Positions 51,899 through 62,791 of a stretch of DNA of 63,289 nt are shown piece after piece. Under the pieces are notes generated by a model. It was not told the origin of the DNA. It saw nothing but the letters and a program-made list of their open reading frames with translations, and searched no databases. The DNA is taken from the NCBI GenBank assembly GCA_030765845.1, contig JAVCDJ010000028.1, positions 1 through 63,289 on the forward strand, written 5' to 3'. The stretch comes from Candidatus Stygibacter australis. Lineage in GTDB: Bacteria > Cloacimonadota > Cloacimonadia > Cloacimonadales > TCS61. A program made the position numbers and the translations under genes. Numbering within the stretch: the first letter of the stretch is position 1; each line of letters begins with the position of its first letter.

Positions 51899-53254
51899 TT
51901 AGAATTTCAGGGTGAAGGTGGTGGCTTGATAGGGTTTGGATTCTACTGAGATGGAGCCACCGTGGATACGCATGATCTGACGTGAGAGGCTGAGCCCAAT
52001 ACCTGAGCCATTTGATTTGGTGGTAAAAAACGGGATGAAGATCTTATCAATTACATCTTTAAGAATGCCAGCGCCATTATCTGATACCTGGATAGCTACG
52101 CGTCCCCGATTTTCCAGGAAAGCGCAAAGTTCGATTTTGGGATTTTCAGATCCTTCAACAGCATGACAGGAATTTTTGAGAAGATTTAAGAGAACCTGCT
52201 CTATCTGTTCCTGATCGACGGTAAGTTCCAGTGAATGAGGATCAATGTTTGACGTAAAGATGACATTTTTGTTTTTGATATCTTCATCAAGCAGATTGTG
52301 AATATTCTTGAAGATATTGCTAACTGGTACAATAGCAAACTTTGGTTTGGGGATTTTAGTCAGATTACGGTAAGATTCCACGAAATGAATTAAGCCAGTT
52401 GACCTTTTATTGATCGTGATCATGGAACTGCGGATATCGTCAATGGTTTCATTATCAAGGGGCAATGGGTTACCATCATCATCTTTTGCTTCATTGAGCA
52501 GATGATTTACAGTTGACGAAAGAGAGGCGATAGGGGTTATGGAATTCATAATTTCGTGAGTAAGCACTGAGATAAGTTTTTGCCAGGCAGCCATTTCCTG
52601 TTCTTCGAGTTCAGATTGGATATTTTGCAGAGAGACGAGTTTTATGGCTCTATCTTTGAGTTTAAATTCGGTAGCATACATGGCCAGCTGCATGATATTA
52701 TCATTATCAGCTATCTGGATGAGGGTGCGGTCACCAGTAGAAAGCGAGAGAAGAGTATAGGGTAATTTTTCATTTAATGGGGCAAGTTCCGAGATATTTT
52801 TCAGTCGATGCACCTGGAACAGCTTTTTGGCAGCATTATTGGTCATTTCAAGTTCACCATCCTGATTAAAGGCAATAAGTCCAATGCCTATGTGCTGAAT
52901 AACATTTTGCAGATAATGATAGTTTTCTTCCTTATCAGAGCGAATTTTCTGGAAATCGGCAATAACCAGGTTAAATACTTTTTTTAGTTCATCATACTTG
53001 GAACCCAGACCTTCAATCTGAAAGGAACGGGAGAAATCAGCATAGCGGATAGATTCCAGAAAAGTGGTGAGATATAGATTTATCTTCTGAATATAGCTGA
53101 AAAGTGAAATGAACTGGATAATGGTGGTAATTGCCAGAAGTACTGGTGTGATATGGTAACTGAGCTCGCTGATAGAATAATAAACTAGAAAAAGATTGGC
53201 AGAAATCAGTAAAAGGCGGACAATACAATTGAGTTTGAAGTTTTTATAGATCAT
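51899..53254 (-). CDS. sensor histidine kinase (NtrY-like; TM-HAMP-PAS-HisKA-HATPase)
   Basis: VLTHEIMNSITPI H-box, NLLKN, DNGAG, FIPFFTTK.NGSGIGL. Confidence 0.95.
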   Translation of the reverse strand: MIYKNFKLNCIVRLLLISANLFLVYYSISELSYHITPVLLAITTIIQFISLFSYIQKINLYLTTFLESIRYADFSRSFQIEGLGSKYDELKKVFNLVIADFQKIRSDKEENYHYLQNVIQHIGIGLIAFNQDGELEMTNNAAKKLFQVHRLKNISELAPLNEKLPYTLLSLSTGDRTLIQIADNDNIMQLAMYATEFKLKDRAIKLVSLQNIQSELEEQEMAAWQKLISVLTHEIMNSITPIASLSSTVNHLLNEAKDDDGNPLPLDNETIDDIRSSMITINKRSTGLIHFVESYRNLTKIPKPKFAIVPVSNIFKNIHNLLDEDIKNKNVIFTSNIDPHSLELTVDQEQIEQVLLNLLKNSCHAVEGSENPKIELCAFLENRGRVAIQVSDNGAGILKDVIDKIFIPFFTTKSNGSGIGLSLSRQIMRIHGGSISVESKPYQATTFTLKF

Positions 53255-54620
53255 ATCTTTTTAACCTTCTATATAGTGACGCACGGGTTAAACCAAGTTC
53301 CTTGGCTGCTGCGCTGATATTTCCGTTTTTTTGCCGCATCACTTTCTGGATAAGTGATTTTTCCACATCTTCTATATTGAAGCTGTCGATGCCAATTTCC
53401 TCATGATGCTGATCGGTAGGGGAGAGAATAAAATTATCAGGTAATAGAATCTGACAATCGCTCAGAATAACAGCCCTCTCCAGAGCGTGCTGAAGTTCCC
53501 TAACATTACCAAGCCAGGTGTAATCCTGGAGTTTTTTTAGGGCAGAACTGCTGATAGAGCGAATATCTTTTTTATATTTGTGAGCAATTTTGGGGAGAAA
53601 ATGATCAACCAGCGGTTTGATGTCATCAATTCGTTCTCTCAAAGGAGGAATTTTTATTTCCACGGTATTTATCCTGTAAAGCAGGTCACGTCGGAAAGTG
53701 TTTTCACTCACCATCTGATATAGTGGCATATTAGTGGCGCAGATGAGGCGTACATCAACAGGTACTGGATGATTAGCTCCCACGCGGGTAACCTGGCGAC
53801 GCTCGATCACTGTGAGTAATTTAGCCTGTAATGGGAGTGAAAGATTGCCAATCTCATCCAGGAATATGGTTCCGCGGTCAGCAACTTCAAAGCGTCCTGG
53901 TTTGCTGGCTTTGGCATCAGTGAAGGCACCTTTTGTGTGCCCGAATAGTTCACTTTCAAACAGGGTTTCGGTTATTGCACCAAGGTCAACTGAGAGGATT
54001 AGTTTATCTTTTCGGCTGGAATTACGATGCAGGGCTCGGGCAACAAGTTCCTTTCCAGTACCGTTTTCTCCCAGGATAAGCACATTTGCATCAGTGCCGG
54101 CAACTTTTCTGATCGTGTTAAATACTTCCTGCATGGGCTGTGAGCGTCCAATGAAATCACGAAAAGACCGATCTATTGTATTAGAGAGTTCTTTCTGCTG
54201 AAGACGCAATTTGCTGTTCTCTTCTTGCGAGTGTTTCAGCTTAAGAGTTGATGATAGTGTAGCAAGCAGTTTTTCATTCTGCCAGGGCTTGAGCACAAAA
54301 TCCACCGCACCACGGCGGATTGCCTGCACTGCCCTTTCCACATCTCCATAAGCTGTGATAAATATCACGATACTTTCTGGATTGATCTCCAATATCCGAT
54401 CCAGCCAGTGAAATCCTTCCTGACCACTAATCGAATCTTTGGTGAAATTCATATCAAGCAGAATAAGATCAAAATCCTCTGCTTCCATTAATTCAGGGAT
54501 ACGGTCAGGATTTTTTTCCAGAACTACTTTACCAACCTGATTCTTGAGCAGCAGCTTAAGGCTGAATAATATGTCTTCATTATCATCAACTGCAAGGATT
54601 TTGGCTGTCTTATCTATCAT
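53244..54620 (-). CDS. sigma54-dependent response regulator (NtrC family)
   Basis: REC LLDMNF; GENGTGKE, ESELFGH.KGAFTDA, FLDEIG, W.GNVREL, Fis-type HTH. Confidence 0.96.
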   Translation of the reverse strand: MIDKTAKILAVDDNEDILFSLKLLLKNQVGKVVLEKNPDRIPELMEAEDFDLILLDMNFTKDSISGQEGFHWLDRILEINPESIVIFITAYGDVERAVQAIRRGAVDFVLKPWQNEKLLATLSSTLKLKHSQEENSKLRLQQKELSNTIDRSFRDFIGRSQPMQEVFNTIRKVAGTDANVLILGENGTGKELVARALHRNSSRKDKLILSVDLGAITETLFESELFGHTKGAFTDAKASKPGRFEVADRGTIFLDEIGNLSLPLQAKLLTVIERRQVTRVGANHPVPVDVRLICATNMPLYQMVSENTFRRDLLYRINTVEIKIPPLRERIDDIKPLVDHFLPKIAHKYKKDIRSISSSALKKLQDYTWLGNVRELQHALERAVILSDCQILLPDNFILSPTDQHHEEIGIDSFNIEDVEKSLIQKVMRQKNGNISAAAKELGLTRASLYRRLKRYDL

Positions 54621-54736: not shown

Positions 54737-55111
54737 ATTATCTTGTAAAAGCTGGCATCCCCCTGTTTTTTTATATATTCAGGGCATGTTTATAATAGAT
54801 AATTGACCAGATAAGTAGGACTTGCAGCGCTGATGGTACTCCGGAAGTGCGGCGAGAATTACGGGCAGTTATCAGTTGCTGTCTATGTATTTATCCTCAG
54901 CAGTTTTTTTATTCGCAGGAATGGGTGATAGTGGTCGTCATCTGCGCCGCACCTGTGAGTACACCGGCGCTGCACAATGGGCATTTATATCTCCGATGGC
55001 TCTTCGTTTCACCGGAGGCTATGCGTCTTTATCCCCTACCGGGGAATAATTAAAAAAACAGCTGAGATTATCCATTAAATTTCGGGGGGATGCTTAATTA
55101 TCTTGTAAAAG
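54737..55111. mobile_element. candidate MITE-like insertion bounded by 15-bp direct repeats and 9-bp inverted repeats
   Basis: ATTATCTTGTAAAAG at 54737-54751 and 55097-55111; GCATCCCCC (54755-54763) / GGGGGATGC (55085-55093) just inside; no transposase. Confidence 0.45.
54823..54974. ncRNA. candidate structured RNA/ssDNA: ~50-bp interrupted rod with a branched apex
   Basis: TGCAGCGC/GCGCTGCA, GTACTC/GAGTAC, GTGCGGCG/CGCCGCAC and TATCA/TGATA nest in register; GC-rich in an AT-rich context; family not recognised. Confidence 0.45.
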
Positions 55112-55114
55112 TAT

Positions 55115-55144
55115 TTGACAGTTTACTGCTATTTGGCATAAACT
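55115..55144 (+). promoter_or_regulatory. candidate sigma70 promoter of the PAS gene
   Basis: TTGACA-N18-TAAACT. Confidence 0.4.
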
Positions 55145-62254: not shown

Positions 62255-62382
62255 CAGGTTAATTTACTCTCAATTTTGTCTTTATTCCCTGCTGATTTCC
62301 CCTGTATTTTGAAGATGGAAACTGCCTAACAATCAGATATTATATGAGTTAAGTATGATTCCAGTTGTTAATTTTCTCAATC

Positions 62383-62575
62383 TCATTAACCACCGATTTT
62401 AATCGGTGGGCTGAATATAACAAAAACATATTGTGGCTTCAGCCACTTTTATAATTCTATGCTTAGATTATTCATTTGAAAATTTCATAAATATTTATAT
62501 AAGTTGTTGAAGTCACTAAAGTGACTACACATCTTTTGTATTCAATGCCCACCAACTGAAGTTGGTGGTTAATGA
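62383..62575. repeat. four-hairpin palindromic cassette (REP/IS200-IS605-end-like)
   Basis: Two inverted ~66-bp units, each with an 8-bp and a 5-bp hairpin closed by TTYA loops. Confidence 0.8.
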
Positions 62576-62791
62576 AAATGGCTTAATATAATAATTCAGC
62601 GCTGACGCAATTGCAATTAATTTCGAGGGGATGCGTGAATATCAGGAAGGTCTTGGATGGTGGAAACTAAACTGTCTTCTTTCGGGAAATCAGAGAGTAT
62701 AACAAAAAAAGATTGACCCTTTGCAGGCAAGGGATATAAATTTGCTTTAGTGAGAATTTTGCAGCTGGAGAAGAAAATATCTGGAGGAATT

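Follow-up and report, generated by a model that had tools for sequence, protein, structure and literature searches.

Bacterial MITEs include Correia/NEMIS of Neisseria, RUP of Streptococcus pneumoniae and ERIC/IRU of enterobacteria. REP/REPIN elements are without Tn5-type termini or the accompanying duplications, and the tetranucleotide GTAG adjoins the REPs of E. coli. For the IS4 superfamily, which includes Tn5/IS50, IS4, IS231 and IS701, strict promoter-proximal, oriented insertion is to our knowledge undescribed. Such placement has until now been documented for TnGBS, ISLre2 and ISKra4, whose unrelated, prokaryotic Mutator-like transposases insert in a fixed orientation, 15–17 bp upstream of the sigma-A −35 box (PMC3942029).

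We analyzed a window of 63,289 nucleotides (contig JAVCDJ010000028.1) from the genome of Candidatus Stygibacter australis (designated G000; 278 contigs, 3.8 Mb, here numbered C1, C20, C33 and so on), in which a structured intergenic element is very probably a MITE mobilised in trans by a Tn5-fold transposase of the IS4 superfamily and inserted 3 nt upstream of TTGACA. Like the bacterial MITEs above, the element is short, non-coding, intergenic and present in many copies, with terminal inverted repeats that match an autonomous IS, target duplications and the possibility of folding as a long hairpin. It differs from them in its long duplication of 12–16 bp, in insertion at a fixed 3 nt upstream of TTGACA, in a hairpin that is internal cargo rather than the product of paired termini, and in interior modules that are swapped between subfamilies. 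The parent IS resembles members of the IS4 superfamily in its single YREK DDE transposase, predicted Tn5-like fold and short terminal inverted repeats, but it lies below the named NCBIfam cut-offs, its family makes duplications of 12–16 bp as against 9 bp for Tn5, and its insertion is strictly promoter-proximal and oriented.

The features of the locus are listed in Table 1. The initial annotation had described a 375-bp element with 15-bp direct repeats and inner inverted repeats between an NtrC gene and a PAS gene, containing neither a credible ORF nor a transposase. The repeats were both located exactly, and the two flanking genes were confirmed. The longest ORF within the element encodes 68 aa (54847–55053) and runs across the junction of two interior modules; because this junction is found in the window copy alone, the ORF is not a conserved gene. 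The repeat ATTATCTTGTAAAAG occurs exactly twice in the window, and no third copy was found in the 63 kb, even allowing two mismatches. Each direct repeat is followed 3 nt inside the element by its terminal motif, GCATCCCCC (54755–54763) on the left and GGGGGATGC (55085–55093) on the right. In the window copy, the right tip is TTA where the consensus has CAG, so that this copy may now be immobile. A promoter scan called TTGACA-18-TAAACT ahead of the PAS gene, whose ORF begins 61 nt past the TTGACA. The nearest relatives of the NtrC-type activator outside Stygibacter, among species-representative genomes, are mostly from Bacteroidales MAGs (63–66% identity), which rank level with those from other Cloacimonadota.

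Table 1 Features of the element and its surroundings, in window coordinates.
Feature	Position	Strand	Basis or remark
Left 15-bp target-site duplication, ATTATCTTGTAAAAG	54737–54751	.	Exactly two copies in window
Right 15-bp target-site duplication, ATTATCTTGTAAAAG	55097–55111	.	
MITE proper, 345 bp, non-coding	54752–55096	+	Termini match the IS at G000 C1:1301-2786; site empty in G002
Left terminal inverted repeat, CTGGCATCCCCCTG, then T-run	54752–54765	+	Resembles transposase-downstream end (IRR) of parent IS
Right terminal inverted repeat, CGGGGGGATGCTTA = CGGGGGGATGC + tip TTA, preceded by AAATTT	55083–55096	+	Resembles transposase-upstream end (IRL) of parent IS
Promoter-like boxes 5' of hairpin: TATAAT 54791–54796, GATAAT 54798–54803, TTGACC 54803–54808	54791–54808	+	Sequence, copy comparison
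Conserved ~180-nt imperfect hairpin ('core')	54809–54986	+	Covariance-model match, 190.9 bits
Second module, with hairpins CTCCGATGG...CACCGGAG and CCCC-TACC-GGGG	54981–55082	+	Aligns to C20:23401-23527 (83%) and C9:10588-10688 (81%)
TTGACA, −35-like box of PAS gene promoter	55115–55120	+	TAT (3 nt) after right duplication; insertion-site landmark
NtrC-type activator, REC-sigma54 AAA+-HTH_8	53244–54620	minus	
PAS-domain protein	from 55181	plus	

The same promoter was compared in two congeners, G002 and G003 (Candidatus Stygibacter frigidus). In G002, whose NtrC protein is 90% identical, the intergenic region contains no element and the TTGACA is present. The G002 spacer, from ...GTCAACAAAAAGTGT-CGTAA...ACAGT to TTTGACAGT, is 31 nt long, and the window without the element and one repeat has 32 nt, in agreement with the earlier suggestion that such a removal would leave a short divergent promoter region. 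In G003 (NtrC 96% identical), a different MITE subfamily is present in tandem at this promoter, with the duplication GTACAGTAAAAAAA followed by TAT and then TTGACA. This single promoter has received two independent insertions and also exists as an empty allele. The repeats might alternatively be chance matches in AT-rich intergenic DNA; shuffled sequences gave on average 0.57 matches to the 15-mer with up to two mismatches. The match is, however, exact over 15 nt, and each copy lies 3 nt from an inverted terminus. With the same architecture found at dozens of loci and an empty allele in existence, a chance origin is refuted and its probability negligible.

BLAST and a profile search with nhmmer revealed that the interior is repeated in G000, in full about 16 times and in part about 30 times. 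Positions 54752–54976 recur at C42:1192-1415 (96% identity) and C5:13113-13329 (92%), with further matches in G000 at 87%, 81% and lower. The last ~120 nt of the element match other loci (on C20 and C9) rather than this set, and the window copy is therefore a mosaic of two modules, the second of which was borrowed from another MITE subfamily and takes the place of the usual 3' tail of the core. A 9-nt terminal motif marks further elements of 200–340 bp in G000 with unrelated interiors, and elements with the termini of the window copy, each between flanking repeats of its own, are found across G000 and its relatives. Among 26 elements with paired ends, the flanking repeats are all different and 10–16 bp long (up to 20 bp counting tip bases). 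Because they vary by copy, they are target duplications, with no fixed att site. The initial annotation had proposed that checks of this kind, namely a search for other copies, a search for an empty site and a comparison of the flanking repeats, would discriminate between a non-autonomous element inserted by a transposase and site-specific integration. The first search found dozens of copies in G000 and congeners, the second the empty site in G002, and the third repeats that vary between copies; together with an autonomous IS with matching ends, these identify a non-autonomous mobile element. A site-specific recombinase acting on a fixed att sequence would accommodate a 15-bp repeat longer than most IS duplications, and the highly selective insertion sites, but the flanking repeat differs in every copy with only the neighbouring TTGACA constant, and the product of the matching autonomous IS is a DDE transposase rather than an integrase. 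The variable repeats refute a fixed att site, and this alternative is rejected as extremely improbable. At 345 bp (below about 600), with no coding gene, with terminal inverted repeats and variable duplications, in multiple copies, present or absent at a given site, and accompanied by a matching autonomous element, the element is a MITE.

The window contains another MITE of this superfamily, in a decayed state, at 62291–62635. Its right end, ...AATTAATTTCGAGGGGATGCGTG, lies at 62612–62637, and its left end has degenerated to GATTTCCCCTG. The interior matches the subfamily represented by C33:17173-17511 and C128:8554-8892, and contains a four-hairpin stretch (62383–62575). Separately, an extra module of ~40 nt (…CGCCAAGGCTACGGCA…) is present in the hairpin 5' arm at C16:10325-10540, C181:5545-5761, C19:9847-10059 and C32:20282-20470, and is inverted in the 3' arm at C12:25273-25465, which suggests that it is another small mobile or recombining module.

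The parent IS, located at C1:1301-2786 in G000, is 1,486 bp long and contains one ORF of 443 aa; its termini are the same as those of the MITE, and it is flanked by a 12-bp duplication, ATTTTGTAATAA. Terminal and subterminal sequence is common to its ends and those of the MITE over 17 to about 35 nt, the MITE left end resembling the transposase-downstream end of the IS (CTGGCATCCCCC-Y-GTTTTT) and the right end the upstream end (CCCCCCGAAATT...). The 443-aa protein scores 41.2 bits with Pfam DDE_Tnp_1 (PF01609; cut-off 23). Its segment YRLRWKIEEFHRHVK contains the Y-x2-R-x3-E-x6-K signature, and Y330, R333, E337 and K344 are invariant in 40 homologues. A search of PDB sequences with the transposase gave insignificant Tn5 matches only (E about 0.6–0.9). 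Its AlphaFold model (pLDDT 85.3) was aligned by Foldseek over the full length with Tn5 transposase (3ecp/1muh) at E = 1.7e-14 and a TM score of about 0.6. The Pfam match, the signature and the modelled structure together indicate that the parent transposase is an IS4-superfamily DDE enzyme with a Tn5-like fold. The named IS4, IS701 and IS1380 models of NCBIfam all missed their cut-offs (best 43 bits against 160), and the enzyme is therefore assigned to an unclassified lineage within the superfamily.

The named relatives of the transposase come from Cloacimonadota MAGs, and the family is present in 55 of the 121 genomes of the order. The G000 assembly holds a single full transposase gene, that of the parent IS, and congeners with 9–53 hairpin-bearing copies contain transposase fragments only. 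This scarcity is weak evidence either way, because MAG assemblies often lose multi-copy IS. We infer that this particular lineage is the mover of the MITE.

The target rule was analyzed in the 26 paired-end elements of the Stygibacter group and in 20 copies of identical IS found in complete genomes that represent four other genera. In the latter, TTGACA lies exactly 3 nt past the duplication in 8/8, 4/4, 4/4 and 3/4 copies (19/20). The same offset was observed for 16 of the 26 Stygibacter-group elements, most of the exceptions having another element next to them in tandem. Among loose matches to the element end, 7.7% have TTGACA at a distance of 14–24 nt, compared with 0.28% of random positions (~28-fold). 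Of 27 such TTGACA sites, 23 precede an ORF of 100 aa or more on the same strand, which mostly starts 40–60 nt downstream. Matches to the −10 hexamer are modestly enriched downstream of targeted boxes; a logo of the sequence downstream of 79 of them showed no sharp −10 consensus. The targeted TTGACA is thus designated a promoter on the basis of its position and gene context, together with this modest enrichment.

With the element end 13–19 bp (the duplication plus 3 nt) upstream of TTGACA and genes avoided, the placement is like that of TnGBS, ISLre2 and ISKra4. The transposase, by contrast, belongs to an unrelated superfamily (DDE_Tnp_1, Tn5 fold), and the NCBIfam models for ISLre2 and ISKra4 gave no match to the parent transposase at E <= 0.01. 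The resemblance is best described as a functional analogy, not membership. The end facing TTGACA is the transposase-downstream end in full IS copies and the upstream-like end in MITEs, each class being strictly oriented, and this opposite facing does not fit a simple orientation imposed by the transposase.

Elements of different subfamilies are stacked at C33:17173-17790, with the same spacer three times, as would be expected were each insertion to restore the target beside TTGACA. At least three hairpin-bearing MITEs were likewise observed head-to-tail in G002 (C116:11581-12150; L052, L056), with the same 18-nt spacer, AGAATAACAGGGAATACA, between them. The junctions of abutting elements (e.g. 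C33:17496-17550) have the form GGGGGGATGC - 19 nt - GCATCCCTC followed by TGTTTTTTTT, and fold on the plus strand as a terminator-like hairpin with a T-run.

The core hairpin was searched for across the phylum Cloacimonadota (232 genomes, 66 genera) with a covariance model built from ten copies. It was detected in four of the five genomes of the genus (30, 31, 53 and 9 copies) and also in two genomes outside it, which belong to two further genera of the same family, and nowhere else in this set (in total 6/232 genomes and 3/66 genera). In the relatives, it again lies within the same termini, with 12–15-bp duplications and the 3-nt rule. Rfam 15 returned nothing relevant for the window at gathering thresholds, and no covariance match at E <= 1 for the element or six other copies. 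A candidate SRP-RNA-like origin of the CCGGAAG/GCCAAGGC motifs was rejected, having no Rfam support. Derivation of the hairpin from the remnant long termini of a larger IS was also rejected, as no pair of 5' and 3' arms flanks an ORF and as the solo arms follow stop codons or adjoin decayed ends of MITEs.

Pairing statistics were obtained for 51 copies from four genomes, with the ten-copy structure mapped onto the alignment; RNAalifold on the 51 copies was unusable owing to a few rows with a replaced 5' arm, and the cmsearch alignment was left out because it mixes both strands of this palindromic element. Pairing is kept in 82% of cells, compared with 32–52% with slid partners, and helices 1–3 are about 90% paired. 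Compensatory pairs were found at alignment columns 27-178, 52-156 and 70-138, and pairs with changes on both sides number 20, compared with 15–19 in slid controls, among copies related by descent. G-U cells outnumber A-C cells by 196 to 87 (~2:1), and wobble majority columns favor the plus strand 5:1. The calculated folding energy is −123.8 kcal/mol for the plus strand and −107.5 kcal/mol for the minus strand, a gap of 16 kcal/mol. The G-U bias and the better plus-strand fold suggest that a plus-strand single-stranded form may occur, a signal that is indecisive because the copies share descent.

In most copies, a −10-like box lies 5–18 nt 5' of the core, and the (T)GATAATTGACCAGATAAG stretch at the promoter-like boxes of the window copy is present again in most copies; a consensus promoter scan called no promoter at the boxes at 54791–54808. 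The plus strand of the hairpin is always directed at the downstream gene, and no terminator was found between the two. Transcription of the hairpin is conceivable from these sequence features. On one alternative reading, the hairpin, as a transcribed structured RNA (an sRNA, a 5' leader or a portable upstream promoter), would be the selected unit and the transposon ends its vehicle, which is compatible with the MITE. The pairing held across 51 copies, the three compensatory column pairs, the strand-specific wobble and folding bias, and the arrangement of box, hairpin and terminator-free gap all speak for this reading. Against it, there is no Rfam family, and the patchy distribution, with 9–53 copies per genome, is the pattern of a selfish repeat. 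Many copies are reduced to one arm, the arms of the G048 subfamily form a perfect 34-bp palindrome, and the apical third is unconserved. The double-change pairs barely exceed those in slid controls, and the support from shuffle tests is inflated by shared descent. We consider selection on a structured RNA unlikely.

Hairpin arms also occur alone (about 20 in G000). In another genus, three or more 47-nt 5'-arm units are arrayed in tandem at G048:C76:20755-21120 (L240), with two 3' arms after them at the end of the contig, a BIME-like clustering of the arm module. Like REP/REPIN elements with RAYT, the arms are found singly, as inverted doublets and, at least once, in a tandem array. The arms might be REP/REPIN-like units that are moved as folded ssDNA by a Y1 (RAYT/IS200-type) transposase and lie within Tn5-type MITEs incidentally. 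The solo arms and the L240 array are in line with this, as are an AAGTAG motif 5' of the hairpin 5' arm, reminiscent of the GTAG of E. coli, and five Y1_Tnp genes of IS200/IS605 or RAYT type in G000 (C150:1238-1582, C32:943-1287, C54:3518-3772, C161:1598-1888 and C199:3499-3687). However, the genome-wide match list places no core arm next to any of these five genes, and, in a further departure from REP/REPIN elements, full copies sit within Tn5-type termini and duplications. Most full-length cores, in five genomes, are at a fixed distance inside such termini. Mobility of the arms by a Y1 transposase is very unlikely.

The observations are best accounted for by the following mechanism, in which a Tn5-fold DDE transposase would move the MITE in trans, recognising its ~14-bp termini, CTGGCATCCCCC(Y)G. 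Cutting of the target with a stagger of about 12–16 bp, here 15 bp, and repair of the cut would yield both copies of ATTATCTTGTAAAAG. On its promoter side, the duplicated block ends exactly 3 nt upstream of a gene-preceding TTGACA, which at this locus is the −35-like box belonging to the PAS gene. The TTGACA could be recognised by direct readout of the DNA, or through a sigma factor or RNA polymerase bound at the promoter. The element has landed between two divergent genes, interrupting neither a gene nor a core promoter, and it may influence expression of the PAS gene. Its interior is a non-coding mosaic of the ~180-nt hairpin, the hallmark cargo of one subfamily, and a hairpin module of another.

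Taken alone, the locus is an ordinary MITE, and this identity accounts for the puzzling intergenic structure; what sets the family apart is its promoter-proximal target rule and conserved hairpin cargo. Annotators should call the cargo a riboswitch or an sRNA gene only on the strength of expression data. A more far-reaching proposal is that the hairpin is transcribed from the −10-like box of the MITE toward the gene, so that homing of the transposase to −35 boxes spreads a structured RNA over dozens of promoters. We hold this to be quite improbable; if true, the spread RNA would be a leader, upstream promoter or insulator module, rewiring genes in Candidatus Stygibacter and its relatives. The target rule itself means that a Tn5/IS4-type lineage common in Cloacimonadota puts both its own copies and the miniature elements derived from it 3 bp upstream of TTGACA. 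This would be a convergent 'safe-harbour' strategy and would offer a compact system for studying how a DDE transposase reads a promoter, and the insertions mark likely promoters in a phylum without genetics.
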